A stretch of DNA of 63,682 nucleotides, counting the filler, from Octopus bimaculoides (taxonomy: Eukaryota), in NCBI RefSeq assembly GCF_001194135.2. It is 4 parts of 3 records of this genome, joined end to end, with 100 filler letters (N's around TTAATTAATTAA, not from the genome) between each part and the next. Parts side by side here need not be neighbours in the genome. Positions count along the whole stretch, not along the records: positions 28,421 to 56,337 come from NC_068990.1; positions 56,438 to 61,308 come from NC_068999.1; positions 61,409 to 63,682 come from NW_026350718.1; 1 more part is not named here. One strand, given 5' to 3'. Below, one piece after another: positions 28,466 to 62,660 of this stretch. Positions within the stretch are counted from its first letter, which is position 1. Each line of letters begins with the position of its first letter. The notes below the pieces were generated by a model, which was given only the letters and a program-made list of their open reading frames with translations, was not told where the DNA came from and searched no databases. Made by a program: the position numbers and the translations under genes.

Positions 28466-28517
28466 TAGTCTCTGATGAAGGGTTATCCCTAATATCCGAG
28501 AAACAGCTGTAAGACTA
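28466..28517 (+). ncRNA. Type I minimal hammerhead ribozyme motif (Penelope/retrozyme-like)
   Basis: TAGTCT-CTGATGA-AGGGTTATCCCTAATATCCGA-GAAAC-AGCT-GT-A-AGACTA. Stem I is TAGTCT/AGACTA, stem III is the palindrome ACAGCTGT, and the cleavage triplet GUA ends at 28511. The base of stem II is imperfect. Confidence 0.7.
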
Positions 28518-28588
28518 CCTTTCGCTTTATAAATTCCTATAAATTCCCCATAGCCTTGGTTTTGTTGTCTCATTTCATTTGAGACACA

Positions 28589-28635
<47 letters not shown>

Positions 28636-29753
28636 CATTAATAATGATAAGGCGAACAGAGATTTTTCGTATCCATAATCCACTTAACAGATATTTACGG
28701 CATTTATTTCGAAACGGTCTAGGGTCAATGATTCTGATGAAACTGCACTGACCATAATACTAGGCTGCATATCCAACATTGTATAGTTACTGCAGTTGAA
28801 ACACGTTTAGGTACGGAAAATGTGCTGTAAATAATTGTTAAAGAAATGATGAATGTCAAAAATCTCCATCCTCCTTAACATTATTAATGTTATTAATTAC
28901 TCAACGGATGATAAGCAGTCGTGAGCGGGACACAAGTAATTAACCTTCGAGAGAAGTTAGCAAGGCATAACAACTCATGGTTAGTTCGAGTACCACATAC
29001 AGACCGTTGTGGTTAGTCGGCATCTGAAACCGACTTGAGAGGAAATATGGTAACTTCCAGGATAATATATCCTTTTATGGTATATATATATATATATATA
29101 TAGATGTTTATAGATGTATATATATAAACATATTACTATCGTATTCACAAACAGCTTATTAGATGAAAGTGACAAACCAAAATGAATATATAAATAAATA
29201 CAGAAATAAATATAAGCGAAAATGAAATAAAAACATGAAAGCAGGCATTCGAAACTTCTGTTCTCCTGCATCCAATTCATCCAATGATAGTATTTATAGA
29301 TAATTCTACTAAGATCCTTATATACGCTCGAGCTTATTGGTGCATGCTAGATTGTATTTGTACGGGAATTGTCTATGGATATACATACATATATGCTTAC
29401 AAACTGAAGCACGAATACACAGAAACGCACAGACACATGTATATGCATGTATGTATGTATGTATGTATGTATGTATCATACACTTTCGCTTGGAATTTTG
29501 TGCCGTTTCTGGGCAACACACTAATCTCTTATAGTCTCAGACAGCCAGACGCCGATCATGCCGATCTGTTTTACTGCAGAATCCGCTCTTTTCCTCATGT
29601 TTTTCATATTATAGTATTGTATTCCTTGTTTTATATATCCCTATATGTACTTACTCTAAATATTCTTTCCAAAGAATATGCATGTACACACATACACACA
29701 CACAAACATGTGTATGCATATATATTCATGCATATACATATATATGCAATTAA

Positions 29754-29789
<36 letters not shown>

Positions 29790-32700
29790 CAAATTAAAGG
29801 GGTAAAGATTTATCAATTTATTAATTTATTAATAAATCAACAATTAACAATTTTTACCAAGCCCTTCGGTATGTACGCACCATTATCAGTGGAGAACTTA
29901 TTTAAAAGTTCCCATACATCTATAAACATAATTAAGGGATCAGCAAGCATTTGCTTCACCATATACCGAAGTTCAGAAATAGCAGCTAAAAAAGCTGAGA
30001 CTCCAACAGATAGCATTACTTGTAACTCACAAAGGCAACAACATGAAGAAAAATCAATGAAAACTAACCATTTAAAGTTAATCATAGACGCGTTTCTGGA
30101 TTATGAATGATAAATTTCAATTTCCGTCATATATATATATATATATATATACTTTCTTACATGTATATTTACCTGGTATATGTATATGTAAATACACATG
30201 TGTGCGCGCGTGTATTATTTCAATATTCCGTTATACTATAGTACTTCGCTTCTCAGTCTTTCATTCTTCTGTTGTGTTTATAAGTATGTTATATGTCCCA
30301 ATTTGCACAGTCATTGCACACGGGAGGCGTGAGGCAAATATCCAGATGATTTCGTCAGAGCTTAGTTTTCTATGTGATTATAGCTCAACAATAATGCAAA
30401 ATGCACCTCAAGTTTTGCGCTTAGTGATATGGCAAACAATAATTAATGAAATAACATTAAGTGTCCACACAAAGTACCAAATTTCCTGTTGAAACAGTTA
30501 AGATTAAGACGATATCGATATCCAATCCAAGAATTTAAACCTCCCAATACATACACACACTTATGTGTGTGTCAGTAAATATGCTTGATATTATATGAAA
30601 ATCTACCACTGTTCCGTATATACACCTCATATATTGGATGTCTCTATATTGCTGTTTACATGTTTAGTAGAGAAAAATGGACATAGTTTCCATATCAACT
30701 ATCAGCAGTGAAAAATGTAAACTGTTTAACATGATTATATGAACTATGCCATGATTCAAAAGAAACCCGGAGAGGTTTGGAATGAGAAATTTGTCAGAAT
30801 TTTCACGAAGATGAAGGGAAAAAGTAAACTTCAGCAGAAAACACAAAATAAATAAAATAACGAAATATAATGAAAATTACCAATTCTTTTGTATGATGAC
30901 AGTCAGTAGAAAACATTTCTATAATGTATTTAAATTTGAAGAATAGTAGATTTAATTGTGATAAAAAAATTAAAATTTGAGATATTTCTTGTATTCTGAA
31001 CAACATACGTATGTATTTCTCAACTTATCCAGTAGTTTTATTCATCATGCAGCAAATATTGTTCAGCAAAACTAGCAATTCATTGAGACAAAATATGACT
31101 ACATGAGGTAGGAAAAATGTAAACCAAATTGTAAACAACAGAAAAAATATTTATCATTTGGATTCAGCATGATTAGAAATCATTATCTTTCTACTGGGAT
31201 AATGGGAAAATGAATTTTACATGGGTGTGTGTGTGTAGTGCCAGAGTATGTTAATAGGAATGCGCGCTCCCCACGGATATACATATAAATACGTATATAT
31301 GTATATACAAATACATATGTATGTATATGCATATATGTATGTACATATAGTTCTGTATACATGTATATGTATATTTGCATACATGCATACACACACACGC
31401 TCAAGCGCGCACACACATACACAAATAAACAAACAAACAAACAAACAAATGAACGCAAACATTCGTAAACACGTATTTAAACGTACAGGCACACCTTTTG
31501 AAACAAACTTAGTTTATGATTTATTATTAAACCTGTTAACCAAAATTAGGTTTTGAGGAAGCTACTATATAATCTTTTTTATTAAATACTACTTTTCGAA
31601 TTCATATATTGCTGTTATTAAGAATCATAAATCACTCTTTTTACGTTATTTCTTAATACTTTGAAAAGCCTTACATACTGCTAAGTTTCTGGAGTTTAAA
31701 ATCAATAACGTGTTTTTTCTTCAAAATTCGAGCTAATATTTTACTTGTACAATCTGATTGGTAGATAAATGAACGAGACTCTGATATATAAGCTTTATAG
31801 CGTTGTTAACATTTTCTCAATCATATTTTAGTGAAGATGCACATGTACACATGATTGAGTTTTAATAGTTCATGTTTTTCCTTGTAAGTACCTTTGAGGA
31901 AGACATGTTTCCGGACACAAGAAACCGATACAAGTTATGTTTTCTTGATCACCATCTCCTTGACTTGAAAAAATACGCTTTTGTTTTTATCAAATGAAGC
32001 CAATATTTTTGTAATTATGTTTCATTACTTCTGACACATGGTAATTGTTTCTTCTATGTTTAATGAAATATACCGACTGTTATGAGAAAAAATATTTTCC
32101 AATGAATATGCGATAAATCGATTATATCGGTAAAGAAAACACGTAATACAATACATGTACCACCTAAAGTAACTTCACGCCCATAATTTTACTGACAGTA
32201 AATAAATTCAATCTTGCATTAGGTTTAGTATTAGGAAAATAGGAACATATTTTGTAATCAATTTTTCTGGCTGTCAAGACATTTTGAGTGGAATATATTT
32301 CTGCACATAGGAATTTACAATTAATTAGAAACTTATAATTTAGTCAGATGTGACTAAATCATATGACTCCCTTCTTGTGTGAAACGCACCCCACGGTGCA
32401 ACGTAAGTAACTAGGCATCTCTGAATTACTTATATACACTGGTATCTATATTTCAGGCGTGTTTTGAAATATTCGCAAATGCAATGATAATCTTTTGCTA
32501 AAAGATGACAACTAAATGTAGCGATATGAAACGTTTATAAATGCAATGAAATACCCCCAATCTGTTTTAGGCACGTGATATTGATAAGGCATAAAAATAG
32601 CGAGACATCGATGTCTATCCTTCCTTAATGAGAATTGGAGCGAGTTGTCTCGCCTGTCTCTGACTGTTTTAGCACCCTGTAGTTTGAGGGAGGTATCTTT

Positions 32701-34741
32701 GTCGCGCTAAGACGCAGCCTACCAGTGCAGAAGCAAGGCACATACATTTGGGCATTGAATATTTGTAGTCGAATATACATGTATATGCGCGCCTTTATGT
32801 GTGTGTGTTTGTGTGCCTGCGTGGGTGTGGGTGCCTGCATATGTGTGTCTGTGTATGCTTTGTTGTTATATGTTTGCCTATGTATATTGTAAAATATAGA
32901 GCGAACAAGAAACAATTCGAGGCATGATGTTTCTTCTATCTGTTATAGAATATTATATATCGAGAAAACCATAATCGTGTATTGTTAGTGTATCTTTAGG
33001 ATATCAGCATCTAAAATAAGTAGTTAAATATCAGTCCTAATTTACCAAATTATTTTGTCTAAATTGGAACGTGGCATACGATATAATATCCCAAATTAAG
33101 TCATTAATAGTCATTATTAAACTCTAAGAGGTTATAGATGTTAAGATCTCAAACTGTACGAGCGACGAATCTTTTTTCTTAACATGTAAAATATAACATT
33201 TGGTGAAACGGTATATACTGCAGTATATTTCCTTTTAAGGTCTAACATGGAGGCTCATCAAAGAGGAATTTAAATTTTACTACTAATACATTAATTTTAA
33301 TCATGTTCTCCTTTGGAATTTGTGCTGGTACACTAATCACATAATGTAACCATAAGATCTACAAAGAAGAGAAACCTAATAATTAAATACTGAATATTGA
33401 GTTACGATTTCCAGCATTACATCCAAAACATACTTTTGATAAGCTGCTGAGACATGAACTGATATTTATTTAATTAGTTTCTGTTAATTTATCTACTTAA
33501 TATTCCTAGAAAATGTATATTCAGAGACGTAAAAGGGAAAATAATTGGATCTCACAGTTTTAGCCCAATTTCGAAATTCTTATGTTAATTGCACATCATA
33601 ACCACAACCGATAGATACTAAGGATCGCTTAATATAAGAAAGTCTGATGAAATATATTTTAATTCTATGCCATGATTATTTTTGTACAATCGATAGTAAA
33701 TCCTATAACATTACGAAGCTACTGTTGGAATCTTTCAAAAATTAAATTACTGTATCTTATCAAGACATCCGTAACGTAAATATAGTTAAATAATTAACAT
33801 AGTTAAGGTATCGAGCAAAAATAATATTGATCCAGTGAATAATATATTAAACATTACGGTAAACATCAGAGAAAACACTAGATCTGCTTCGGTTTTACTG
33901 AAGCATCGTTTCTTTGTGGTACTTCATGATTGTCATCCCTAACTTAACTTTTCTATTTGATATTTCAATTGATAGTGAAGTCATCAATTGTCACCTTATT
34001 CTCCCGAGACTTATAAAAGAAAATTAAAAGGACTATTCTGATTCTCTATCCTCATTTCGTGTATATGCAAATCTAGCACAATTAAGAATACTCCAAATCG
34101 CTAGCAATGTTCTAGATTTGACGTTATCCAATTTTCATATATCTTTCGTCATGCTTACTCATCTTTTAATCTAACATATTGATGTCAACTGTATGACTTA
34201 ATACGCTGAAATAGCATTCCTTAACTTCTGTATTTCTAATGTTTCCATAGATGCGTCAAACAATATCATAATACATCTCTAAGCCAATCAGAATCTGTTC
34301 TTGGTTACTTGTCTATAATTTACTTTCATAATTAATTATAAAATTTACGGAAATAATTTATTTGAATAATAATATAGGACAAGCGCTGAAGCATCGATTA
34401 TGTTGCTCTGCTTAAAATTGTGAATTCTCAGTCAGTTTCAGGGATGATTATTCGGATATTTGATCAACTGAGTGAACAGGACGTTAAAGTAACGTAGAAG
34501 AGGCTGAGTATTTCTTAAGCGGGTATACTCTTAACATATCAGTCAAATCGAATCAAAATGGTACATTGTGTGACAAGTTTACAGACCTTTCAAATTACAG
34601 GACCTATTCAAACAAAATTCCACAGTTTCTGACGACAATTTCATTCGAAATATTAATATAATTCGTGAAGTGTTTCCTTGTATTTTCAAATAAAATTAAC
34701 TCTTGTAATTAATTCTAATATATTTTCAGTGCTTTTTGAAG

Positions 34742-34838
<97 letters not shown>

Positions 34839-36540
34839 TTATATAAAAAGAGAGAGAGAATTGGGAACTGAATATGAGTGCAATCGTCAATGTTGAAAAG
34901 TGTATGATTCACGATTATGTTGTGTGATTGCATTTGTAAAACTGATACAGTATGTATCCATCTACGCATGTGTAGTAACCGAAATAGTATTTCAATGAAT
35001 ATATTAATTAGCATATATTCTGGAGAGAGACGTTTTTGATCTGAACACTATTTAGTGATAAGAGAAAATATTCAAATATCTGACGTCAAACACTTGCTTG
35101 TGATACCTCTAAAGACTGTCAGATTAAATTGTTCTGATGAAAAAAAGTGATAGCGTTCGCGGAATATACAATTCCCTTATGATACATCACTTAAATTAAC
35201 TGATCAGCGATACATCTCCAGAATTGCATCAGAAAACATTCAAAATGCTTATAATTTACAATCAAGCTTTCATGAATAACTTAAAGCAAGAAATAGGAAC
35301 AACTCATCGACAAATTTCAATGCATTTAAGGAACTATGGCATTGTATATTACAGTGGCCTAAAATTATTATAGTAATGGAGATTGGCTGCATTGTTTCAA
35401 AATGTGGAAATTTTAGAAGCATTACAGTACTGATATTTAGTCCCGACTTCTTAAGTTCCTAGTTCACATTTTGCCGTGATCAAGTTTACTTTTTACTTTT
35501 TAGATTTTTTTTTTTTGCGTTTCTTCCCCTTACAAAATTTTCGATCTTTTACGTATGTTTTAAACTAATATTTATCAATGTTATAAGCAATAGTTTCGAA
35601 TTGAATGAAGCCTAGCATTACTCGTTTCAAAACTAAAGTCTGCTCTAACTTTATTGTCTTTGTTAGGAGGGTACAGAATGTGTCTGACACTTTACACCGC
35701 CCCCGAGAAAGGGAGTAATTCACCCTCATAAACGAAATCCCTGTCCCAATGCTTCCGGCGAATGCGGCGGAGCTAAATTCTAACGAAACGCAAACTATAC
35801 ATGACCAAACCGTATTCACTTCAATATTATTTACCTGGGTGTACAATATTCATTGCATTGATGTCTTCCTTAAAAAAAAAAAAAAGAAATTTGAAGGGAA
35901 TTTTTCAGTTATTTCTAACAAGGTTAAGTGACTACAGAGAGGGATTCTTGTGGTGATGGATCCATTTTATTCCAATTGTTTGTTCACAACTGTGGTTGTT
36001 TTTGAAATGAATGTAATGGTCGTTACTTCATTTTTAGGTTCATTAATTCATATATGTAAATCTTTTTTTCATTTCAACGGTTCATTAAAATATCTATTAA
36101 CAAAATAATTTTTAAATGAATTTTTACGATTGAAGCAAGAAGAAGCGTAAAAAAAAAAACATCAAATGAACTTGCAAATGTACATGATTCAAATAACGTA
36201 CAATGCTGCATAGTGATTTTTAAAATGTGAATTGCAAATATTATGATGCTCAGTTAACGAAACCCCAATTATTCATATTTAATGAAGCGGTTTCGCAGCG
36301 TGCATTGTATCATCGGTTGAAGTACCTAGCAATAATTGTTACTCATATTTTCACGCAATTGTAACAAAAGGATAGGAGGAAAGATCTCTTCTCTGCTACA
36401 GAAACAATGTCTATTAGATGCATAATATACAAGTGCAAGTAAGTTTATGGCATAAACTGAGCTGCACTTGCATAAACTAACTTGGTACGAGTTTTACTAC
36501 GAATATATTACTTTGCGAAGTAATGGTACTTTATATAATC

Positions 36541-36753
36541 CTTTCTAATATAGGCACAAAGCCTGAAATTTTGGGAGAGGGGGCCAGTCGATTAGATCGA
36601 CCCCAGTACGTAGCTGGTACCTAATTTATCAACCCCGAAAGGATGAAAGGTAAAGTTGACCTCGGCGGAATTTGAACTCAGAACGTAAAGACAGACGAAA
36701 TACCACTAAGCATGTTACTCGGCGTGCTAACGTTTCTGCCAGCTCGCCGCCTT
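36541..36753 (-). mobile_element. SINE family B copy, near full length, tail type 1
   Basis: The minus strand reads AAGGCGGCGAGCTGGCAGAAACGTTAGCACGCCG...GAGTTCAAATTCCGCCGAGG...GGGGTCGATCTAATCGACTGG...CAGGCTTTGTGCCTATATTAGAAAG. Confidence 0.9.
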
Positions 36754-36793
36754 TTGAACTTTATATAATGATGCTTTATATTGCTTTAGTCAG

Positions 36794-36836
<43 letters not shown>

Positions 36837-37093
36837 NNNNNNNNNNNNNNNNNNNNNNNNNNNNNNNNNNNNNNNNNNNNNNNNNNNNNNNNNNNNNNNN
36901 NNNNNNNNNNNNNNNNNNNNNNNNNNNNNNNNNNNNNNNNNNNNNNNNNNNNNNNNNNNNNNNNNNNNNNNNNNNNNNNNNNNNNNNNNNNNNNNNNNNN
37001 NNNNNNNNNNNNNNNNNNNNNNNNNNNNNNNNNNNNNNNNNNNNNNNNNNNNNNNNNNNNNNNNNNNNNNNNNNNNNNNNNNNNNNNNNNNNN

Positions 37094-37136
<43 letters not shown>

Positions 37137-37290
37137 ATTTGTATGTCTGTGTGTACCAGTATACGTATATCTGTAAATGTGTGTATATAAGTATGTGTGC
37201 GTGCGTGCCTGTGTGTGTGTATACGTATGTATGTGTATGCTTATATATCTATATAAATGTATACATTTCATATGTGTGTACGTAGGTATA

Positions 37291-37378
37291 TAGGCGTAGA
37301 CGAGGCTGTGTGGTTACAAGCTTTCATCTCAGCCATATGGTCCTTGGTTCAATCCCATTGCGCAGCACCATGGGCAAT
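37291..37378 (+). mobile_element. SINE family A head fragment
   Basis: GGCTGTGTGGTTACAAG...GGTTCAATCCCATTGCGCAGCACCATGGGCAA, with A- and B-box-like motifs. Confidence 0.7.
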
Positions 37379-39634
37379 ATGCTCGATCTCAAAACGTCTG
37401 TTAAAGGAAAGTAATTATATCTTGGAAGAGTTAGTTTAACTTTCAGGAATACGCGAAATACAATATAATTCTGACGAAAATTGAATTTGCTGTGAAATTA
37501 ATTTCCAAGAAGTATTCCTGTTTTCTTTGATAGTCCCAAAGAAATGCCATTAAAGCTTAATTTCTGTCTCCAACTAAGACGAAAATTTGAATTTATTCAG
37601 AAAACATAGTCTTCCTACATGAATGATATGAATTCAAGCCATTGGCTTGTATATGTATATTTATACATATAAATGTTCTTACATATGCATATATGCATAT
37701 AAACCTACTATGTCCTTTCGGATATCCTTATACATTTTGGGTGGTATGAGAAACTGATTGTTCTATTTTCAAATATAATTGCGAATTCCGAGTCCACAAT
37801 GTAAAAGTCTGTACGTGTGACAACCGATTGGAGTGAAGTAACCAGTTAAGGATTTGAATCGTTCAGCCGCTACCAATACCCATGATGAATTGTCAAAAGA
37901 GAATAAAATATTTCGTGTCTCCCTTTCCTGTACTGCCATATGTCCGAGCTCGAGAATTTGCCGTCGGGTTTTCTCTGTCTTTGTCTAATAGTTGTCCTTT
38001 AGTTTCCTGTTGATCACTACGCTACCTCAACACACGCGCTGTCATGAAACTTGTAAATGTTTCTCTCTAGAGGCCTTCGTAGAAACATCTCAACACATCT
38101 CTATTATCACCTGAAAACTGTCGTTACGTCCATCTATATAATTTTAAGTATACTCTGTAAATCCACTGTTCCCATGAGTCTTCTTAGTATCATGCTATAG
38201 TCCAAACTGCTGCCTCTAATTACCATATTATACAATCAAAATACGTAATAGAGCTTACTGTCACAAAAAATATGCAACAAACACTCTAGATTTTTCCTGT
38301 AATCTAGTTCCGAATCATTTTCTATTCAGTTCGATTTCTAAAACTAGCATCAATTTCTGGTTATTTTTTAAACTAAATATGAGATTTTCCTACGTGGATA
38401 TAACTTTCCCTTAATTGAAAACAAGTGGACATGTTAATCATCTTCTTGGTTGGCTGTAAAGTGTTAATCCTGCTTTGCAACGTTCTTTGCATTTCTCTTC
38501 AAACATTTATCTTTTAGAGAGAATAAAGAAGCTGTGTTCTTTCAATTTTATTTGCTCACAATTAATTTTAGGAGAAGATGCACTCAGCTATTTTAGTGAA
38601 TATGTTTAGTGATGTGATGATAATTGTGATGTTTCTTATGAAAATAATCGTATTATTTTGGTTCAGAAAAGCCCCTTAATTATTCTTATTACCATTCACT
38701 TTTATGTATAAGTCTAAGAGTAATGTAGTATGAAATAAAACGTATTCTTAATAATATAATGAACATTATGTATACTGTAAAATGTAATACCTTTAAATAT
38801 ATCCTTAGTTCTTAACAAAACTGATAAATACTTACAGGTGGTTGTTTGATGCCTTGGAAATCAATAAATTTTTTATTGACTCAGTTTTAAGCGTAATAGG
38901 AATATAATTTTCACATATGAAACAAAAGAGATAGTAACATATATTCTATAATTAGCGTATATTTTATACAATTGTCATTTTACTCTGATATGAGAAATTT
39001 ACGAGGCTTTCATGGATGCGCTTGCTTAATACTGCAACCGACGCTTTGACAATATGGTGTATAACTCACTCACAAAAGGCCCTGTCTTTACAACGGAAGC
39101 TAAATGACGAAATAAGACAAATAGCTTTTCTTCAGCGCAAGAAATGGTGAAAATGAATATTGAATGAAAATACGGACGCCTGCACATAACTCTACATTAC
39201 TTTTGCTACAATTACATTATCATGAGAGCAGAAGAATGGGAGATGTTATAGTATGTCGTTTCTGGAAGTAGATTTCTTCCAGACAGAAATCTGATTTGCT
39301 TTTGCAAAAATCAATAAACTAAGAAAACAGAGTTTTGTGCAAATCCTCCTCAGACTTTTGTGACAATGTCAATAAACAATACTATCAGTGAAGAAAGATA
39401 GAATTGCGCTGTAAATCCACTTCGCACTGATCACTAGGCCTACATAACTCTCTGATCTTTTATCATTTCAGAGTTGATATGTATTAAAATACTCTCTGAT
39501 ATTCAGCATAAATTAATATATGTATGTGGGGCTGTTTTTTCCTAATCAGACATATGAATCATACAATAACCACGCATATCAAGAAATTTTGCCCCATTCC
39601 ACTTTTCTACACTTGAAGAAAATACAGCTAGAAT

Positions 39635-43445: not shown

Positions 43446-43494
43446 TCGCGACTGAAGATGAGCAAACGAACTCGAAACAGAGTCAATCTCGCAA
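43446..43494 (+). ncRNA. Hammerhead ribozyme motif with offset stem I
   Basis: TCGCGA-CTGAAGA-T-GAG-CAAACGAA-CTC-GAAAC-AGA-GT-C-AATC-TCGCAA. The core is complete, stem II is GAG/CTC and the cleavage triplet is GUC. Confidence 0.55.
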
Positions 43495-43741
43495 TCCTGT
43501 CGTCTGCTGAAAGATGGGGGACATAGCTTTCGCAAGCCAGGAAGAGTCGAAACTGACATTTCAGAGTCCTTCGCTTTGAAACCAAAAGAGTTTTACATTG
43601 ATGGGATTAAAAACTTGTAATTAGATGGAAGGAAGTCATAGATAATCATCGAAAGTACATTGATGATTAAATTTCAATTAAATAATACATTTGATCAATT
43701 GTTTACTTTATTCAAAATTCGGACAGAACTTATGGGATGAC

Positions 43742-43792
<51 letters not shown>

Positions 43793-44586: not shown

Positions 44587-44646
44587 ATATATAGTGAGAG
44601 AAAGAGAGAGAGAGAGCGAGAGAGAGAGAGAGAGATAGAGAGAGGG

Positions 44647-44696
<50 letters not shown>

Positions 44697-44800
44697 AAGT
44701 TAGGTAGGTAGGTGGGTAGGTAGGTAGGTGGGTAGGTAGGTAGGTAGGTAAGTAGGTAGGTAGGTAGGTAGGTAAGTACATAGTTAGAGAGAGGGGAGAG
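44587..44800. repeat. Compound (GA)n-(GATA)n-(GGTA)n microsatellite
   Basis: Directly visible. It explains the PTYL/SIYL ORFs. Confidence 0.97.
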
Positions 44801-45554: not shown

Positions 45555-45601
<47 letters not shown>

Positions 45602-45617: not shown

Positions 45618-45656
<39 letters not shown>

Positions 45657-50244: not shown

Positions 50245-50590
50245 GTATAAAAGTTGTGGTAGATTGGAGCAATTTACATCAACCAAAAACTCCAGAGAAA
50301 TCCGTGAAAATAGAGTCAGTAGATCCAGAGGTGCGATCAAATCTGGCGAGCTCGGGTAAGAGTGACATTCACAAGGGTGGAGGGGTATCTGCGACGAGTG
50401 AACAGATGGGACAGGTATTGAAAGAAAGTCTCGAAATTATGATCATGACAGCACAGACGCCAGAGACTCTGGAGCTGGGAAAATAGGATGTCCCATTCGG
50501 TTTGGGCGGAGTGAGTGTAGGAAAGATCGAGAGTGGGGTGGGACTTAATAACTTTTAAGAAGGTGGAAGCAGTGAAAGAGATTATCAATA
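50245..50590 (-). mobile_element. Penelope-like element (PLE) reverse-transcriptase C-terminal/thumb fragment
   Basis: ORF 50337-50588 reads KSHPTLDLSYTHSAQTEWDILFSQLQSLWRLCCHDHNFETFFQYLSHLFTRRRYPSTLVNVTLTRARQI. This resembles the PLE motif series KPTDSH.YL..SSSH...IPFSQ.LR.RR.CS...F..RGYP. Confidence 0.7.
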
Positions 50591-50763
50591 ATAGAGAGAG
50601 AGGGAGGAGAGAGAGGAGAGAGAGAGAGGAGTAGAGAGAAAGATAGGGAGAGAAAGGGAGATGTTCAGAAAGTGAAATCCTTTTGATAATGATTTATAGT
50701 ATCGATATATAATTGTAAGATCCGAGTATCTAAGTGTAGGAAGTTTGCAGTCCGTGATAGATA

Positions 50764-51975
50764 TCAGGCTGAGTAAAAAGTAAGCAACGTTTTAAACCAA
50801 GAAGAATTGGTACTGGATTTTTTCAGTTTTGATTTTTTAAAAACATTCTTTTGAAATTCTCTGATAATACAGACCTAAACTTGCCCAAATGCTTCAAGCG
50901 TTGATATTTTTTCCTCGTGGTTACAATCATCTCAAATGGAACTGTCAAAGCGCAATGTTCGAGCAATTCTGCTATTTAACTTCAAAAAAGGACGGAAAGC
51001 AGCTGAGACTGCTCGCGATATCAACTGTGGTCAGTTCGAAAACAGTTTAAACGATTTCGCAGTGGATACTTGAGCCTCGAAGATCGTGAGCGAAATGGAT
51101 GCCCACCTGTCATCGATGATGGTTAATTAAAGACCGTCGTTGAGAAAGATTCCCGTAAGACCGCACGAGAACTGGCAAAAGAACTTTAGGTTAGCCAGAA
51201 AACTGCGTGAAACTATTTGTATATGATCGAAAAATCAAAAAAAAAAAAAAAATGGGTACCACACAATTTGAATGAAAATCAGAAAATGCGCAGATATGAA
51301 ATTTGCTCATCACTTCTCTGTAATCATACTGATCCATTTCTCGACTGTATTGTAACCTGCGATCGATGAAGTGTAGATTATGTACAATAAAAAAAAAGTT
51401 CTTCGCAGTGTTTGGAACAAAACGAAGCACCGAAAACCTTCCCTCAACCCGAGCTCTTCAAGAAGAACGTTATGGTAACTGTTTGATGGTGTACTGCTGG
51501 ACTCTTCCACTAAAACTTCTTAAAACCCGGAAAAACCATTACGGCAGAAATATATTGCCATGAAATTGTCAAAATGAACGGAAAACTGCTACCCGTCCGT
51601 ACAGACTGGTCAACAGAAGAGTGCCAATCATTCTTCATGACAATACTCGCCCACACGTTTCACTAATGACACTCCAGAATTTGAGTGAACTTCGCTACGA
51701 AGTTCTTCCCACCCAGCGTATCCCCCTAACCTTTCTCCTTGATGGTTTCCTGTGAGAGAAGTTAAACACTCAAACCGATACTGACAGTGCCTTCAAAGAG
51801 TTTATCAGCTCCAGAACTCCAGATATTTATGTTATCGGAATAAACAAACTTATAACGCGTTGGCCACAATGTGTTGATTGTAATAGTACTTTTATGTATA
51901 ATATTTCCGCATAGCTGAAATATATTATGATAAATTTCATGTTTCAAAACGTTGCTTGCATTTTACTCAGCATGA
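50764..51975 (+). mobile_element. Mariner (Hsmar1/cecropia-like) DNA transposon, near full length, pseudogenised
   Basis: TA-flanked TIRs TCAGGCTGAGTAAAAAGTAAGCAACGTTTT and AAAACGTTGCTTGCATTTTACTCAGCATGA. From ATG 50936 it reads MELSKRNVRAILLFNFKKGRKAAETARDIN, followed by WVPHNLNENQK, IVTCD, LHDNTRPHV and GINKLITRWPQCVDCN. It has multiple stops, frameshifts and deletions. Confidence 0.95.
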
Positions 51976-52233
51976 TATAAGAAAAAAAAAAACAACAACG
52001 TTCAGGAACAATGATACTTTACTGGGATTAATGTTTGTTGTCTTTTCCCACGTCGAAGTGCGATAAGAGGAAAAAGATTAAGTATAGATCACTGTTAGCA
52101 GCTAGAAATGCTATCAATGTGAATAAAAATCCAAATCGAGGGACTCGAACAATGAAAAAAAGGCTAGATATAATTCCTAGCTAGCAAATCTATATATATG
52201 ATATATATAGATATATGCAAATATATACATACA

Positions 52234-52293
<60 letters not shown>

Positions 52294-52494
52294 NNNNNNN
52301 NNNNNNNNNNNNNNNNNNNNNNNNNNNNNNNNNATATATATATATATATATATATATGGGCTTCTCAAACAAAATTTCTCTCACCATTTCACTTCAATTT
52401 CTAAACATTTGGTCATCATTTTATCTCTGTTATTTCATGATTAGCATTTCTCTAGCATCCCGTCACTGTTTGCGATATTGCATTCTCATCACGT

Positions 52495-52536
<42 letters not shown>

Positions 52537-52710
52537 GTTCATCTCACTTATATGCATTAATTCATTCTTTCTTCCATCCTTACGTTAGCCCCACATCCTG
52601 AGAGAATGTCTCCCCTGTTAGATGACTTCTCTTTATTTCTCTCAAATATTTCCTATTCCCTGAAGCTCTCACATAGTTATTTGTCAATCTAATCCATCTG
52701 CTTTTGAATA

Positions 52711-52745
<35 letters not shown>

Positions 52746-53084
52746 AAAAAAATGTCGTCACTCTACTAAGCAGAGTCACTACCGACTCCTTTCGCATCAA
52801 TTATTTTACACGTTAACTGTTATCCCTACTGTCTACTGCAGTGCTTTATCTTTGTTCTTTCTTCTCATATACGCTCTATTTCTTCCTTTGCTACTTCCTC
52901 AATCTCTTCTTTTTCTTCCCTCTATATATTTCAAGGCCTGCTGATGACAGCTGGCTATTTATGTCTGCTTTCATTGTTGTTTCAAACATTTCTCTTTTGA
53001 GATACCTACGGTCAGACATGGAGAAGAAATAGAACATACAAAATATGGAGACGTGACGTGTCTATTTATAAGTTATATATATAT

Positions 53085-53190
53085 CAGCTCTTCGAAACGC
53101 CAGTGTTAAAACGGGGGTAGCTGATGAAGTAGAATGTTCTCTATGTGGCTTGTGTGTTTTCTCGTCTCTGTTTTGTTTGCAATGTCCTGT
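53085..53190 (+). mobile_element. Short PLE-LTR-like repeat with separated hammerhead boxes
   Basis: CTCTTCGAAACGCCAG at 53088-53103 and CTGATGAAG at 53121-53129, followed by GGCTTGTGTGTTTTCTCGTCTCTGTTTTGTTTG. It lies between microsatellite-rich tracts. Confidence 0.4.
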
Positions 53191-53273
53191 ACCCAGATAT
53201 GCACCTATACATACAGGTGGATGTCGGTATGCACATACCTGTACGTATATATGCATATACTCATTTACTATTT

Positions 53274-53340
<67 letters not shown>

Positions 53341-53343
53341 CGC

Positions 53344-53386
<43 letters not shown>

Positions 53387-55433
53387 TATATATATTCATA
53401 TGTATATATATATATAATTGCGCGCGCGTATATGTTTGTGAGTGTGTGTGTGCGTATGTGTATGGGGGTACTTATGATAATAATATTCATTTGCAGCAAA
53501 AGCTGCCTCATATTCGTTGGCTTAAATATTTACTAATTTTATCACCTTACAAAGGTATGTGACATCCAACTATTATATGCACTCAGTTACTCCTTCATGC
53601 AGCCATATGAGCATACACAAAATATCCCCGAATTACAAAAGTCTTTTTATTCCTGTTATCTCTAATTAACTGCCCCCCTCATTTTATATCTTGTGCTCTG
53701 ACGTTCAGTATCAACTATTATATAGATCACCTGTTTTCTTTCTATAATTTTATACTGCTATAATTTTGTCCTTACCGATGCGAATAATATACCATCTAAA
53801 CCAGAGGCATATTTTATTTGAATAAATGTCATTATTACATTGTCTCATTTCTAATTGTGCCTGGGAACAATTCATTCAATGGTGAACATATTAACAAGCT
53901 AGACAAACTACACACACATAGGTGCAGTTAGACAATACATATATGTTTGTTTGTGCGTGTGTGTGTGTGCGTGTCTGTGTATGTATTTATGTATACACGC
54001 ATAAGTTTAAACACACATGCACACACGCACCCCTCCATATATATATAAACACAGAAACACATGTGTGCATTCATAGAAATTATATCTGCATCTTTTATTC
54101 TATATATTTACTTCTGTAACTCTTCACGATGCATACGTAATCGAAGATATTCGTTCATTTTTCTCTATTTAATCACAGACGTCTTCCATTCACGCACATC
54201 GAGAGTTACAAAGAGAAGTACACTCCGATTCTACCTGTTTTTCTATTATTTTCTTTTAATATTATTCTATAGTAAATCTCACTCGTTGAAACCGCTTTAA
54301 GGATTCTCATGTTCACATACGTTCACGATAGTACCATTTAACACGTATGTCAATCTTTGTATGTTGGTCTCTTCCTCCCTCTTTTTATTGTCTTTACAAC
54401 TATTTTCATGCTCACACATTTAATAATGATCAATCTTTTGTGGCCTCTGTCGCATTTTCTTTTCTAATTAGAGGGACATATAAACTCATACCAATTCGTC
54501 ATATGCCCTTTCACTCAACTTCTAATTTCTTTCAATATTTTTACCTTCATATTCTATGTCAGTCAAATCACGCCATCAAAAATTCAGAGGTGTTTATATC
54601 GAAGTTAACAATCTTGTGTCCCACTTAATTAAACTTAAGCTCACAAATATACATTAATTCCACCTTCCATATTGTATGACGAACAAAATTGATCGTGCGA
54701 TAAAACGTGACCTTAAATTGGTTCACCGAGACAATAGCTTTTACAGTTCGGTTCAAGCGCAAAAAATCTATATCAAAATGCACCATTTATTGAATTTGAC
54801 TCAACACTTAAAACTAAAAAAATTCTTCATAAAAAAAAGCATATCATGCAATCAAACAGACAGAAGAACAATTTAGGAATCATCTAATATCGAAACGATT
54901 TTTCTATTAAATTAATATTCACAATTATAATGTTGAACGTCTAAAGGTGTTTCTTATATTTTCCATTTTCCATTGTTAGAGACATCTTTCATTTCTCTAT
55001 GTCTTTCAGAAATTTCAGCGGACATATTATAAGAAAGAATTAATTACTTACATAAAAAGATATTGAAAATAATTATAGACACGTTGCTTTATAGAAATAT
55101 GTAGCACACACTGTATTTTAAAAATATTTAATAAAAAGTATGTTTAGTTATCTCTTTTTTTCGTCTTGATTCACAAGAACCAACAATTATATTTCAGTTT
55201 CTATTTCCATTCAAATAATTTTGAATGTCTACCTACCCAAATATATGAATGTGTCTTTATATATGTCAATGAATTATACATGTCTATATTTATCAAGCTT
55301 ATACTTTTTAAATTCCTCCGACTGTATCTCTCTCTTTCTCTCTCTCTCTCTTCTCTGTACACACACATAAATACATAAGCGCAAATATATGTAACATATA
55401 TATTAATATAAATCCTTATGTCTATGTATAGAT

Positions 55434-55468
<35 letters not shown>

Positions 55469-55504
55469 CACACACACACACACACGCACACACACACACA
55501 CACG

Positions 55505-55547
<43 letters not shown>

Positions 55548-55549
55548 TT

Positions 55550-55928
55550 AGACGCGGGAGTGGCTGTGTTATAAGTAGCTAGCTTACCAACCACATGATT
55601 TCGGGTTCAGTCTCAATACGTGGCACCTTGGGCAGGTGTCTTCTAATATAGCCTTCGGCCCACAAAAGCCTTGTGAGTGGATTTGGTAGACGAGTACCGA
55701 AAGAAACCCATTGTATGTGTGTGTATGTTCGTGTGTCTGTGTTTGTATCCCTACCGTCTATTAATAACCGCTCATGGTGTGTTTACGTCCCCGCAAATTA
55801 GCAGTTCGGTAAATGAAAACGATAGAATAAGTACTAGACTTACAATGAATAAGTCCTGGGGTCGCTTTATTCGACTAAAGGCGGTGCTCCAGCATGACTG
55901 AAACAAATAAAATAATAAAACAAAGAAT
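55550..55928 (+). mobile_element. SINE family A copy, full length
   Basis: GGGAGTGGCTGTGTTATAAG head, GGGTTCAGTCTC B-box-like motif, internal (TG)-rich spacer and GGCGGTGCTCCAGCATGACTGAAACAAATAAAA tail. Confidence 0.9.
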
Positions 55929-55949
55929 ATATATATATATCTACATGCA

Positions 55950-55980
<31 letters not shown>

Positions 55981-56995
55981 ATGTGTATTTCTTCTATCTT
56001 AATGAATAAACATTCTTCTGATAGAATAAATGGGTTAATAGAAACCAATGTAGCAAAGAACACAAAATAACTGTGGTTAGCCCCTGTTTTTAAGGCAGGA
56101 ACTCCTTGAAATTTTGGGTATTTGAGTATATTTAAGAATTTAAGGATTGGAGAAAACGTATGTTATAATTGCATACCTTATTCCTACATATGTTTCAAAG
56201 GATTACAACCTGTGTGATCCATAGGGATCTTTGATATTAAAATTGTAACCTTCTCATCAGGGAAAGCATGGGAATCATCTTAAACGTAAGACATTATGAC
56301 CGATTATGAAAACAATAGATGGATAAGGTTATGACTTNNNNNNNNNNNNNNNNNNNNNNNNNNNNNNNNNNNNNNNNNNNNTTAATTAATTAANNNNNNN
56401 NNNNNNNNNNNNNNNNNNNNNNNNNNNNNNNNNNNNNAAGGCATCATCAATATTAGAAATGTTGTGTACGTTGTGGTTGATTATGTTTCGTTATATGTGT
56501 GCAACTGAGGCTTTTTTGTCATTTATCGTTGATCATGTAGAGTTAACTAGGTGTGGTTATAATGACGTGGACTGTTTTGGTATTTGGGATTTAGGTTTCT
56601 CAGATGAAGACATATTAAATCGTGAGGATATTAATTACAATGTTATTAATAATCTATTTGATGTTATTTATTATTTGTTTACTCCACACCACGCACCATC
56701 GAAATGACACGTGTGTATGTGTTGAGATTATTTTTGCACAGAAATTGTATATCGGCATTTTAGCATTAATTAAACATTGGTGGTAGCTACTCTTATAATG
56801 TGTAATTTAAGTTGTGTGTTATGTATTTTACTAAAAATTCGTTCATTTATCTAACATCTTATCAGAGAAATAGCGTAACATTCCATTCCAAACTCTATAG
56901 ACATCATGATTTCCATGCAGCCATACATTTATATACACACACACACGTGCATATAGACATATATGTGTGTGTGTGTATAAACGTATATATCTCTC

Positions 56996-57041
<46 letters not shown>

Positions 57042-57864
57042 TTTGTCGCATATGAAATGTCTATTTTAAATGGTTTTCTTATGAGTCATCTATAAATAGA
57101 TTTTTCATGAGTTTCTATGTATGTGCTTGGGCTTACACTTAACTATTTTCCTTTCTAGACAATACTATTATTGAAAATTGCTACCCACAGCACTTATCAC
57201 AATATTGAAAATTGAACAATTCTTCTGATTTTCTTGTACGAATACAAGTTGGGTCACTCTGCTACCGATGCCCTACGAAACATCAAACAGGAGATAATAT
57301 TTTGTGTAATTGCACTCCCTTTTTTCGGGTGGGGTAGTTATAAATGGTGTGCATTTTTTGCATTTTTTTTTTTGTGAAAACAGTATTTTATTCATTTTTC
57401 CCCATTTAAAAAAAAAGTGCCGTAGTACTAAACAATTATAATAATCGACCAAGACTAGCCTCCTGCTGACTCCGACAAAGGGCAGCATTCTGTTATAATT
57501 CTGAACACAAACGCAGCTGAAGATGAAACACATTTCTCGCGAAAGAGAAATGTAATTTCCTCTTGTTTGCTATGACGTCAGTAACAAGTGCAAAGTACCA
57601 GGGGCAACAACGAGAACAGCAGCAGCACCACCACCATGAACAACAGAATTGCAAACAAGAACAATGATAATTGTGTGGAGAAGAACAACGACGACGACAA
57701 TACCAACAAGAAGAACAACATCAATAATAATAGAAAGAACCACAACAAATCTAATTCTTTTTCCTAAAGCCGTTAGCAATAGGACAATTTTGTCAGTGGA
57801 TGACTTAAAAAATTAGGGCACTGAAGTACAAGTGTGCAATTATAAAACCAGGTGTTATGTGCGG

Positions 57865-59880
57865 ATGAGGAAAAACATCTCTGAAAGACTAACAATTGTT
57901 TATAATTGAGTCTCTCACAGGGACAGGACGCTTAGATTGCCTGCTCCGGCAGAGAGCGAAAATAGCGTTGAAGTTGCGTGGCTCTCAGTGCTACACACAG
58001 AGGAGGAAGTTAAGCAATATGGGATGGTCACTGCTATATGCATCACTGAGCAAGACCGCATATGAGTGGCTACTACAGTTTGCACCTGCCAGGCTTTTCT
58101 AACGATTCCCCATTATATGGGTAAAATATTGACACAAATCGAGTCAACAACGTATAGGTTCACCGTAATCCGGCGAAGGTTTTACCCATTCTGAAGGAGC
58201 ATGGGGAGATTATGGAGGTGAAATCCTCCCCACAACTCAACAGAACTGGAGTTCTTATGAATTCTAAATTCTAGTTCCTCCAGAAGAAATAAATCGCATT
58301 TCTGATGCCATGTTCTGCAGAAGGAAAAAAAGAGGATAAGCGTTTTGTCTGTGGGAAGTGGAAACACTTGAAACCTTTTTGCTCCGCGGTGAAGTAAGCA
58401 CGAAGTTCTCCAACATCACTACTGACACCTTAATTTGGGGTAAAAATCTATTACCTCACACCTGCCTTCTTACTCCAACTCAAGCCTCCCAAAAGCACAG
58501 TACTCATTGACATCGCACCAAAAGAAGTTTGTCGAAGATAAGAGGAATACTGAATATGAACCAAAGGGAGACTGGCCCAAATTAAATCTCTAAGACATGA
58601 CAGCAAAAAAACAAAATCGATCACACCAATTTAAAACAAATTAACACCACCCTCAATATCTTCACCAGTAGACAGCGCATTATTGCAAACACACTCTCAA
58701 CAACAAAATGCACATAAACCGAAAGAATCAGCGGAAAAAAATAATCAGCAGTCACACTCTCGTGTACGTGCTTCCGTCATCAAGTTCGCTGTTGTGCAGA
58801 AGAGCAACACTGGATTGATTCTGGAAGTAGTTAATAACAAATATTACAAGTGGAGAAAGTTTTGCGGAACTCCTCCAGAACCTCAACCGTACAGGATGTT
58901 AAACTAAACAGATACGGATACGTATCTTGTTTTGAAATAGAAATCCACCTAGGACATTAGAGGGTTTAGTACTTACCACCAAAAAGCACCCCAGTAAAAG
59001 ACTTTACCACTACCCTCTCGACCAAAAAGAACACTGTGTCAACTTTCATCCTTGGCGAGCGTGGTAAGTAATTCCATTATCGTTCCTCTAAGTTAAATGG
59101 CTACGTTTAGAATTGGCTGTGTAAATATTCGGGACTTGGGTTCGACTTGGAAGCAGGGTTACCTGCTGAATGATCACAATTCCCTAAATTTATGTGACAG
59201 CAATTATTGAGACAAGAATTGCCGGGGAAACTTACTGTTGCAACTATTTTCGAAAACTCCAAAGTATTATCATCTTAGTCAGTCGGGGGTGGGCTGCAGT
59301 TTAGCTGTGTTATTCCGAAAATACTTAGGTCTGCCGTCCGGTCCTATAGTGACTGTTACCGCGCCGCCATCCTTCAACCGGGCATGCAAAGCAGTTTTTT
59401 TTGGTCCCTGGTTGCTGTGGCGAAAGAGCTTTTCTGGGGGCTGAAGCTGAAAGGAATGATCACAGGAGCATAAGACTTTCCGTAAAGCCCGCATCGACGT
59501 TTTTCAAGTTTCACTTGAAAAGGACAGTGAGAGTGGAGAGGGAGGTGCTGTTCTCGATTGAATTTATGAAAAGCTGGGTGAATGCTGAGAAAATAGCAAG
59601 GGTAGATGGTTGACCTGCGAGTCACAGGAAAGGAGATGGAAAAGGTATTTGTCCATGGTATTCAAGGTGATCCTGAACGGTGGGGTTCCTCGATCATCAT
59701 AATTTCTTCGTTATTACTGTATACTATGTATGCTTCACTTGCTGTTATGTATACTGTGTATACTTCCATCTTTTTATATCATTCCATTATATGTAAGCCC
59801 TAACACGTTATGCCTCTCTTTGTATTGTATCCCTCATACTTCGCCCTGATGGCAAATAAAAATATCATTATTATTATCAT
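57865..59880 (+). mobile_element. Internally deleted Tx1/L1-clade LINE (ORF1 remnant, start of the ORF2 APE domain, ORF2 C-terminus, 3' UTR)
   Basis: ORF1 remnant with the CCHC knuckle (R)FVCGKWKHLKPFC at about 58341-58382. ORF2 ATG at 59097 gives MATFRIGCVNIRDLG...VTAIIETR...LAVLFRKYLGL, fused to APPSFNRACKAVFF...FFKFHLKRTVRVEREVLFSIEFMKSW. The 3' end is GGCAAATAAAAATATCATTATTATT. Confidence 0.8.
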
Positions 59881-60535
59881 TGATTTTGTCGTTGATTTTT
59901 TTTTCGTCTATCGATACGTAATATACATCACTCGCTTGAGATGTTTTCGTTCCTATTCTTTCGTTGTTACACAATATTATATACTAAACATACTTGTTAT
60001 CGTTTTAATGATAAACAAAATATGAACATAGCGATCTTGTTAGATATTTTCATCTATAATGCTTAGGGGTTAAGATGGGAATTCATTAGCAAACACGCCT
60101 TTCAGTTGTTGCTCAAAAGTAAAATGTGGTACCGATAACTTTCATCCATAGAGAAGAAGAGCCAGTTATCAGTAGAACAGGATGGTGATATTGTAAGACT
60201 TAGTGACAGAAGATGCAGTACAAATAACATCAATAACAACATTTGAGAAAACAACGCCAACAAACAAAACACGAGAAAACTATGAGGCTACTGCTAAAAA
60301 TTACAGCAAGAACCACCACCATACGAATAACATCTGCGAACAATGATAACAGTGAGCATTATGAAGGATTGGAAGAACACTGCCAAAAGACCAACTCTAA
60401 CATCGCGAGTACCAGCACAAGCAGTAATGCAAAGGAAACGGCGTAATTTCCTGTTTCTAAACAAAATGGAGACGGGCACTAGCAATCATATAGTCGACTG
60501 CCGAATGTTGGCGTGCCGGAAATAAAGTTGCGAGG

Positions 60536-60581
60536 TCACCTCCACACAAAATTTGAGGCATTGTATCCACAGTAGAATGGG

Positions 60582-60653
<72 letters not shown>

Positions 60654-61105
60654 TTACTATTATCAGTTAATTTTAATTTGTATGTTTCTTACAATCACAC
60701 GCCGAGACAGATCCAGCAGATCAATGCACGATAGGAAATATTTTCCAGTGAACAATAATATTGTCTTTTCTCCAGTCGATGTTGAGGCTTCATCTCATTC
60801 TTTTTAGGTCAATAAAGTAAACAGCATGCCAGTAGTGTGATGGATGTGATCGTCGATGCTCCAACCTTAGAATTCCAGGCCCTGCGTCATTAGTAAAAAC
60901 ACATAACGATCGTTTCTGCTAAAGGCACAAAGTCGGAAATTTCGCGGGAGTGGCAAAGTCAACTGTTTCAAATGGTACTTATTTTCTTCATGTCAACTGG
61001 GATGAAAGGCAAAATCAACCTCGGTAGAATTTGAGCTCAGAACAAGAGGACGGACGAAATGACAATGAGAATGTTGTCCGGAGTACTGATGATTCAGACA
61101 GCTCG

Positions 61106-61106
<1 letters not shown>
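60536..61106. mobile_element. SINE family B cluster: + tail fragment (60536-60655), + fragment (about 60775-60890) and - copy (60912-61106)
   Basis: AAAATTTGAGGCATTGTATCC...AGAATGGG(ATA)n, and GGATGAAAGGCAAAATCAACCTCGGTAGAATTTGAGCTCAG. Confidence 0.6.
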
Positions 61107-61157
<51 letters not shown>

Positions 61158-61166
61158 ATAAAACTA

Positions 61167-61203
<37 letters not shown>

Positions 61204-61308
61204 GCAGGACTTACAAATATATATAACATACAGAAAATTGCACTACTGGGTACTGCACACATTCTACGCAAAACACTTTCAATACAGTAAACATAAGAGC
61301 ACCACAAC
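61107..61308 (+). mobile_element. Young R4/Dong-type LINE 3'-end fragments embedded in (TAA)n
   Basis: ATACAGAAAATTGCACTACTGGGTACTGCACACATTCTACGCAAAACACTTTCAATACAGTAA encodes IQKIALLGTAHILRKTLSIQ*. An 18-nt terminal piece AAATAAAACTACTGAATA also sits within the TAA tract. Confidence 0.75.
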
Positions 61309-61699
61309 NNNNNNNNNNNNNNNNNNNNNNNNNNNNNNNNNNNNNNNNNNNNTTAATTAATTAANNNNNNNNNNNNNNNNNNNNNNNNNNNNNNNNNNNN
61401 NNNNNNNNCCTTAAGTAACAAAACACTTTGATAAACTTAGTGGCGACTACAAACTTCAGACCACGACAGAGAGGATGCTCTTGAAGCCGAGAATTTGAAC
61501 TTACGGAGACAATATTTACATATCGCCTGAGGAAACACAGCTAGATCTCAGAATGCAGAGAAACGGTTGCGTAATCAAGAAGCTTCACGCCTGGAGGACT
61601 ACGTTGTGTACAAACAATTGTAGTGATTGAAAGTAAATGTCCGCCATGATTGATCGCTAAATCCAGAAGTTTTTATATTCTTTCTCTGTTTATTTCTTC

Positions 61700-61832
61700 A
61701 TAATCCTTTCTGTTGAAAAGCCGAGGTTCGAAACGTAAAAGACTTTCTCACTTTCCCGAGCGTGAAACTAATACACCCGCTTAGTGTTCACACACCTGTC
61801 TTCGTGTTTTGTTTTTCTGTAAATTTCAGCTA
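61700..61832 (+). mobile_element. Short PLE-LTR-like repeat with a degenerate hammerhead core, ending in (TA)n
   Basis: CTTT-CTGTTGA-AAAGCCGAGGTTC-GAAAC-GT-A-AAAG, followed by CACACCTGTCTTCGTGTTTTGTTTTTCTGTAAATTTC and (TA)n. Confidence 0.45.
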
Positions 61833-62088
61833 TATATATATATATATGTACATACTCACAACACACACATGAATATTTGAAAGTATGAGTATAGACGGCT
61901 CTTTTGAGTGAGTTCAAGTAGACATTTTCAGGCTACTTGAAAGCTTGAAACTCATATCAGAGTAACTCACTGTAAACACTATTATCAAGATTAGAATAAA
62001 AATTATCCCCTCAGAAAAAGCTATCTCTACTCATTCTTTCAAATATATATAATACTGCCCCAAGAACTTTCTCTTTATTATTCTACTA

Positions 62089-62166
<78 letters not shown>

Positions 62167-62294
62167 GAATATGTGGAGTTTAGTTCACTGGTGTTCTAAA
62201 CGAATATGTACAGTGAGTAAGTGCTGTAATTAGTCATTCGCTAGGTTCCAAGTTCACAGCTGAGGCTTGAACTAGGGAACCAGGTATATATTAG

Positions 62295-62660
62295 AGGAAA
62301 AGGACACCAAAAAAAACAAGGCTGGACGAGCATCTCAAGTCATTTATAATAATAATTAGAGTAAGGTCAATTTTAATTCTTACAGCTGTTTCTGGGATAT
62401 CCCAAGTGACAGGCTAGCATGTCCTTACACTGGGTATTCCGCCATCAAGGTGAGTATTATGAAAGTTCTAGACAGGGAAATTCACAGATTATAAGGAATA
62501 AAATAAAATAAAGATTAAAAGTAGTCAGAAAAAGGAGGAAGGTATTTATATCTATTAATTAAACAGATGAAATCTAAGTTAGGCGTGGTCAATGGTCAGT
62601 AGGGATAACTAAAAATAGAAACACAGCTGAAGTGGGTATATATAGGATAAAACTACAATT
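62295..62660 (-). mobile_element. Paralog of the 28466 hammerhead-bearing repeat, decayed core
   Basis: The minus strand has ATTTCCCTGTCTAGAACTTTCATAAT...TTGATGG...GGGATATCCCAGAAACAGCTGTAAGA...AGCCTTGTTTTTTTTGGTGTCC, which aligns with 28440-28572. Confidence 0.55.

Follow-up and report, generated by a model that had tools for sequence, protein, structure and literature searches.

The closest described relatives of the ribozyme considered here are the hammerheads of type SGC (HRIMA-1 and its variants), which, in the available portions of their description, were found only in metatranscriptomes and in no genome of a known organism, and whose definition assumes that the strand completing stem II lies directly after the CUGAnGA box, with at most 1-2 inserted bases (Eckert et al. 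2023, PMC10085705). Penelope-like elements (PLEs) are known to carry minimal type I hammerheads in which an additional base follows A9 and stem III is palindromic or nearly so (PMC4209133), and the Naiads, a further set of PLEs, were reported to be without canonical hammerheads, with no fold given in the accessible text and with Naiad_Ovul flagged as HHR_half_core (Craig et al. 2021, PMC8557442). Here we analyse a window of 63,682 nucleotides (nt) of Octopus bimaculoides DNA (assembly GCF_001194135.2; 'the window' denotes this whole stretch), in which one repeat family, F3, is represented by a fragment whose full-length relatives probably carry a re-wired hammerhead, likely self-cleaving and likely serving a non-coding unit mobilised by Naiad enzymes. 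The novelty lies in the wiring shared by F3 and a Naiad-type family, N; the minimal type I hammerheads found in PLE tails of the same window are ordinary.

Four stretches, joined end to end, make up the window. A first-pass annotation had placed hammerhead-like boxes at five positions, and such boxes are present at all five, each belonging to a dispersed repeat family of the genome: 28466 (family F1), 43446 (F2) and 53094 (F3), which lie on C10 together with a reverse transcriptase (RT) relic, and 61706 (F4) and 62378 (F5), on C55861. All five are 3'-end copies from Penelope-type repeat families, and all are damaged: no intact hammerhead remains among them. The earlier count of four families stands, with 28466 and 62378 belonging to sister families.

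At 53094 the window copy retains the 3' strand of stem II, the GAAA box (G12 at 53094), the stem III and stem I strands, and the CUGAUGA box (53121-53127), and is without the cut-site block and the upstream strand of stem II; two of the motif's four blocks had been recognised in the first pass. The order of its boxes is reversed, GAAA preceding CUGAUGA, and longer relatives add an upstream cut-site block, of which one arm forms stem III with the strand after GAAA and the other forms stem I with the strand before CUGAUGA. The resulting order, S-G-C, corresponds to none of types I, II or III (circularly CGS, GSC and SCG), and a type II reading of 53094 was rejected for want of a stem I hairpin. 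The pattern of GAAAC followed by the core has 2,900 exact matches against 1 for a reversed control, and a pattern taken downstream of the ribozyme has 2,429 against 0. The family comprises at least eight subfamilies of a non-coding unit of 675-800 base pairs (bp), inserted in (TA)n; some units form dimers or carry a second copy of the 3' tail on their 5' side (tandem in 3 of 98 loci). Upstream of the sampled F3 copies neither an RT nor an endonuclease frame was seen, and the unit shows no Naiad-type open reading frame of its own (N-terminal GIY-YIG and C-terminal RT). Matches to the pattern in metagenomes were set aside, all four lying in unrelated bacterial-type sequence without a cut-site block. 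Within the window, a further arrangement of GAAAC before CUGAUGA occurs at 28711-28740 (+), where no cut-site block was recognised by eye.

A pattern that excludes F3 returned 169 matches (control 0), and among the matches listed 99 of 100 belong to the N family, which keeps stem I and the core and has stems II and III and helices d, P0 and b changed on both sides relative to F3. The window holds one N copy, a sixth motif that the first pass had missed; it carries C3>U at 3304 and G10.1>U at 3242, with the predicted cut after A3263 and G12 at 3277. In both families the blocks run from an upstream stem II strand and a strand of helix b to the cut-site block (NUH and a stem I strand), then to the 3' strand of stem II with GAAA and a stem III strand, the partner of helix b, and finally the second stem I strand with CUGAUGA. 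The strand that follows A9 finds its partner far upstream (helix d), and this partner strand continues into a hairpin, P0, whose end is at G10.1; helices d and P0 thus stand between A9 and G10.1, which are therefore not covalently adjacent.

Support for these pairings was counted in 96 full-length copies (75 F3 and 21 N), after copies containing N, truncated copies and copies to which no subfamily rule applied had been left out; the upstream stem II was counted by script, because MAFFT misplaces that strand in N-family rows. Watson-Crick pairs were found at 466 of 480 positions of the upstream stem II (97%), as against 267 of 478 (56%) for the strand after CUGAUGA, and at 254 of 288 in helix d, 266 of 288 in P0, 439 of 479 in stem I and 363 of 382 in stem III; slid registers of the same helices gave 1-58%. 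The same pair counter, applied to 13 real copies, gave 98% for stem III, 94% for stem I and 75% for an SGC-type stem II. Both families keep CUGAnGA, GAAA, G10.1-C11.1, A15.1-U16.1 and NUH; the two boxes were partly forced by the selection of copies, but the NUH rule was not, and the base at the predicted cut was C in 45 copies, A in 43, U in 8 and G in none. Between F3 and N, double-sided changes affect stem III pairs 3-4, upstream stem II pairs 3-5, helix d pair 1 and P0 pairs 1-3; within F3 they affect stem II pair 6, stem I pair 6, P0 and helix b. As judged from sequence, the F3 and N motifs would both qualify as hammerheads, with a conserved core and with stems I-III that covary (stem I at pair 6 only).

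RNA reads from two unstranded runs of 2026 (X23 and X24, with about 6% of the reads taken) add a further change of this kind, as a double change at 10.3-11.3 follows the upstream strand (415 of 909 and 371 of 860 reads in X23), and one X14 contig holds both of its sides. The F3 variant with C-G at 10.3-11.3 (L111:1474, 1507; X23, X24) makes up about 45% of the RNA reads, is absent from the genomic samples taken, and could represent a young subfamily or one that is strongly transcribed.

These counts bear directly on a simpler reading, in which F3 would be a plain type-SGC ribozyme that draws its stem II from the strand after CUGAUGA, the upstream strand acting as an off-switch that forms first during transcription. 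That strand, if one extra base is allowed, preserves G10.1-C11.1 in almost every copy and, in subfamily b, pairs at 5 of 5 positions; the S-G-C order is that of type SGC, as is the linker of 2-5 nt from stem I to stem II; and helix d is weakened in the window copy's own subfamily, where its pair 3 is broken. Against this, the downstream strand falls far short of the upstream one in the pair counts, on which this reading was rejected; in N its pairs 3 and 5 are mismatched, whereas the upstream strand covaries at three pairs; and the variant at 11.3 in the reads is compensated upstream, not downstream. Plain type SGC is consequently regarded as an unlikely account of the family. In subfamily a1 (L107, L205, L230), helix d pair 3 is broken in one variant, in which the strand after CUGAUGA has come to provide a perfect 5-bp stem II, possibly as a shift from the split-core to the plain SGC arrangement.

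As type SGC is portrayed in the available parts of PMC10085705, the split-core wiring of F3 and N shares with it the order of cut-site, GAAA and CUGAnGA blocks, the short linker that joins stems I and II, a pseudoknotted core, and the retention of all core bases. It differs in the upstream position of the stem II strand, in the placement of helices d and P0 between A9 and G10.1, and in its occurrence, at thousands of copies, in a retroelement of an animal. The F3 and N motifs thus appear to work like type SGC, yet fail one of its defining features, a stem II strand directly after CUGAnGA. Lunse et al. 2017 is said to catalogue hammerhead variants such as those of the type I families treated below. 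No prior description of the F3 and N wiring was found in the literature searched, which excluded subscription papers, that catalogue and the supplements of Eckert et al., the last two of which may bear on novelty; the 'additional helices' of PMC10162972 are, in its available portions, length variants only.

If the split-core ribozyme cuts where predicted, the 5' ends of truncated copies might record it, and these were counted in the first 100 matches of the pattern downstream of the F3 ribozyme, of which 17 end 3' of +18, leaving 83 at risk. Of the latter, 34 start between 0 and +18 relative to the predicted cut, 5 between -19 and -1, and 1 between -76 and -20 (8 ends at assembly gaps were censored), and the two windows adjoining the cut differ with p 1.7e-4. 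In F4, a control family given the same treatment, 1 of 59 copies begins at 0 to +18 (70 of 83 matches examined). RNA coverage of the motif amounts to some 900 and 600 reads in the two runs, and these reads span the site; they neither show nor exclude cleavage, because many derive from truncated or antisense copies carried along in host transcripts.

The same data can be read otherwise, with the F3 fold conserved but not cleaving in vivo, as a hammerhead-derived structure that binds protein or stalls RT, and with the pile of 5' ends reflecting RT stalling. The reads that span the site and the breadth of the pile agree with such a structure, as does the hammerhead of a Poseidon PLE, which, according to the available text, depended on protein and was not required for insertion in vitro (PMC11167929). 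It would leave unaccounted for the retention of all catalytic bases and of the NUH rule across diverged families, the sharp fall in the number of ends immediately 5' of the predicted cut, and the lack of a pile in the control family, and a non-cleaving role is judged improbable.

The link between these motifs and Naiads comes through the N family. The published 3' ends of Naiad_Obim and Naiad_Ovul, read by eye, carry the N-family motif, and in one N locus (L391) an RT-like frame ends 1.1 kb upstream of the cut, with a weak match to Pfam RVT_1 (E 0.06) and no match in a PDB search with that frame. N thus shows the two marks of a Naiad PLE, a 3' end like the published consensus and an RT without an endonuclease after it, the RT match being weak. 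F3 shares with Naiads, as described in the available parts of PMC8557442, the (TA)n targets, 5' truncation and partial tandems; unlike them it is a non-coding unit, and F3 itself did not turn up in searches of the supplement of that paper. It is likely, by inference, that F3 is a non-autonomous unit mobilised by Naiad enzymes.

Several observations weigh against the proposed wiring, its activity or its link to Naiads. Stem I pairs 1-5 show no double change, and independent compensatory events are few, because most come from one deep split, that between F3 and N; the copies used in the pairing count were chosen for intact core boxes and the upstream stem II word; and the broken pair of helix d mentioned above counts likewise. 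A nested minimum-energy fold was no better than shuffles (z 0.27), a result that is expected because the helices cross. The 5'-end pile is 19 nt wide, with 5 of 34 ends exactly at 0, and is blurred by (TA)n microhomology; a second F3 sample (39 copies) was weaker, with 6 ends at 0 to +14 and 4 at -15 to -1, although 4 of these ends lie at -1 to +1; and none of 30 N copies starts at the cut. No pile-up of read beginnings or ends at the predicted cut was seen in the two unstranded RNA libraries. Finally, F3 and Naiads are tied by wiring, (TA)n targets and tandem form, without a shared open reading frame.

With these reservations, a mechanism may be proposed. Helices d and P0 would stack and hold A9 beside G10.1, rebuilding the standard three-way core as a monomer; cutting would free an RNA that starts at the cut, of unit length where it arises from tandem dimers; and a Naiad RT/endonuclease would copy the freed RNA into (TA)n. 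Run-off near the cut end would leave copies that start 0-18 nt after it, such as the window copy, which could no longer form the ribozyme. A stronger form of this proposal, judged slightly more probable than not, holds that an active seventh natural wiring, with the strand opened between A9 and G10.1 and clamped by d and P0, may be the hidden ribozyme of Naiads and their non-autonomous partners, cutting as a monomer in the germ line and leaving the imprint of its cut site at the 5' ends of genomic copies in their thousands. If true, this would (i) overturn the view that hammerheads are confined to six block orders; (ii) provide a genome-encoded, non-circular hammerhead form in an animal, none having been found in the literature searched; (iii) explain why Naiad elements were scored as being without hammerheads; and (iv) turn the 5'-end footprint into rare evidence, from within a genome, that a PLE ribozyme takes part in the transposition cycle, a role left open, in the available text, by in vitro work on a Poseidon element.

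The remaining families are of an ordinary kind. The first pass had described minimal type I motifs with a palindromic stem III, which holds for the families of 28466, 62378 and 61706 but not for 53094, which is not type I, and had placed T-rich tails beside microsatellites, which is so at 28466, 53094 and 61706, whereas 43446 adjoins a transposon fragment instead. Like the PLE hammerheads of PMC4209133, F1, F2, F4 and F5 have an extra base after A9, a palindromic or near-palindromic stem III, mostly solitary truncated copies, and a position, presumptive for F1 and F2, 3' of RT and endonuclease; unlike them, F4 has a family-wide A6U, and F1 and F5 a second extra base before GAAA. These four are minimal type I hammerheads in PLE tails, which is known biology, and they are predicted to be weak and dimer-dependent, and are now decaying.

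The damage differs from family to family. The F1 copy in the window (at 28472) carries C11.1>G at 28498, and the full core is kept in 10 of 29 relatives; head-to-head inverted partners, a structure typical of PLE insertions, occur in 4 of 29 loci (L032, L038, L054, L486), and these partners, together with kinship to F5, may tie F1 to the canonical endonuclease-bearing (EN+) PLEs. In the F2 copy (at 43452) stem III is broken at 43477-43487, and the full motif is matched by 1 of 19 relatives; a register using the first GUC was rejected, as its stem I fails, and the second register fits the relatives. Most sampled F4 copies have U at position 6, and the window copy (at 61710) adds G10.1>A at 61718; since A6C is slow in another hammerhead, as far as the available text of PMC3088659 goes, F4 is predicted to be weak. 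No 5' end falls at -24 to +15 around the hammerhead in 70 F4 copies (L405-L474), the opposite of F3. The F5 copy has lost 6 nt through C3-U4-G5 near 62446.

Genome-wide, first-look candidates number 1,337 for F1, 71 for F2, 2,366 for F3, 2,561 for F4 and 1,376 for F5. Searches of the window with Rfam and with a descriptor recover none of the five copies: Rfam gave no hammerhead family at E<=1, only microsatellite matches, and a relaxed type I descriptor (stem I of at least 4 and stem II of at least 3 pairs) matched one unrelated site, 56260 (-), which is within chance level (mean 0.12 and maximum 2 in 60 shuffles). The density of about one motif per 13 kb given in the first pass is not sustained, as these families have 7 matches at 6 sites, none of them F3, in 20 evenly placed 10-kb genome stretches (176,163 called bases), or about 1 per 29 kb.

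The first pass had also suggested a retrozyme system, in which all five motifs would be type I hammerheads of active elements making circular RNAs. High copy numbers, F3 dimers and the presence of F3 sequence in RNA reads would suit this, and F3 does resemble metazoan non-LTR (long terminal repeat) retrozymes in being non-coding, hammerhead-bearing and PLE-related; as characterised in the available text, however, those are tandem units of 150-450 bp with canonical type I ribozymes and circles (PMC7229834; bioRxiv 10.64898/2026.07.22.740005), a definition into which no window family falls. Tandem neighbours occur in 0 of 29 F1, 0 of 19 F5, 0 of 19 F2 and 0 of 99 F4 loci, scanned over about 3 kb each (0.8 kb for 40 of the F4 loci), and the retrozyme label is therefore unsupported for the type I families; the window copies are damaged, and F3 is not type I. 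Read joints that go back about 788 nt were rejected as circles, as they equal the 791-nt period of the tandem reference and reflect switches between paralogues. An active retrozyme system is accordingly considered very improbable. Coordinates of all features are collected in Table 1.

Table 1. Hammerhead motifs and coding relics of the window (feature, position, strand, remarks)
F3 5'-truncated split-core hammerhead unit	53085..53280	+	begins 5 nt after predicted cut
N-family split-core hammerhead, complete layout, decayed	3213..3330	+	81% identity to L389
F1 minimal type I hammerhead	28467..28516	+	palindromic stem III; one extra base on each side of stem II base
F2 old type I hammerhead family	43446..43494	+	relatives 71-89% identical; 4-bp stem III in relatives
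F4 minimal type I hammerhead	61706..61741	+	loop-less palindromic stem III; 3' end of canonical RT-EN PLE
F5 type I hammerhead, long stem II	62378..62455	-	sister of F1
PLE RT relic, thumb-side part	50245..50590	-	49% identity to L332
Broken GIY-YIG endonuclease coding relic	62915..63392	-	75% identity to L314; PLE ending in F5

A PLE origin, as the first pass had supposed, is borne out by coding relics. In L344, L350 and L353, RT-thumb relics are followed about 1.2 kb further on by F4-type hammerheads, and sister cores of F4 that bear A6 were found in L338 and L343. F5 follows a GIY-YIG domain, the window's relic of which had been overlooked upstream of 62378; L314 matches Pfam GIY-YIG with E 0.0014, below the curated cut-off, and the window piece alone has no Pfam match. 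The canonical EN+ layout (RT, C-terminal GIY-YIG, 3' hammerhead) is thus seen for F4, and F5 shows GIY-YIG before the motif. No PLE frame of at least 300 amino acids was found in 20 fetched 9.9-kb loci, and long frames that had seemed to be candidates proved to be N gaps. The RT fragment reported earlier at 50245-50590 is real, but it is the thumb-side part, on the minus strand, and has no physical connection with the five motifs, because the window is made up of separate stretches, with 61706 and 62378 on a different record from the rest.

Three further elements were noted. Beside an F4-type element, L353:7086-7694 (-) holds a GIY-YIG-like frame of 203 amino acids from another PLE family. Directly after F2, 43515-43745 (+) is the 3' end of a high-copy DNA transposon (1,652 first-look candidates, about 95% identity), which we take from its translation to be of mariner type. 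A second, frameshifted transposase relic lies at 50925-51900 (+), and is presumably, from its translation, also of mariner type.

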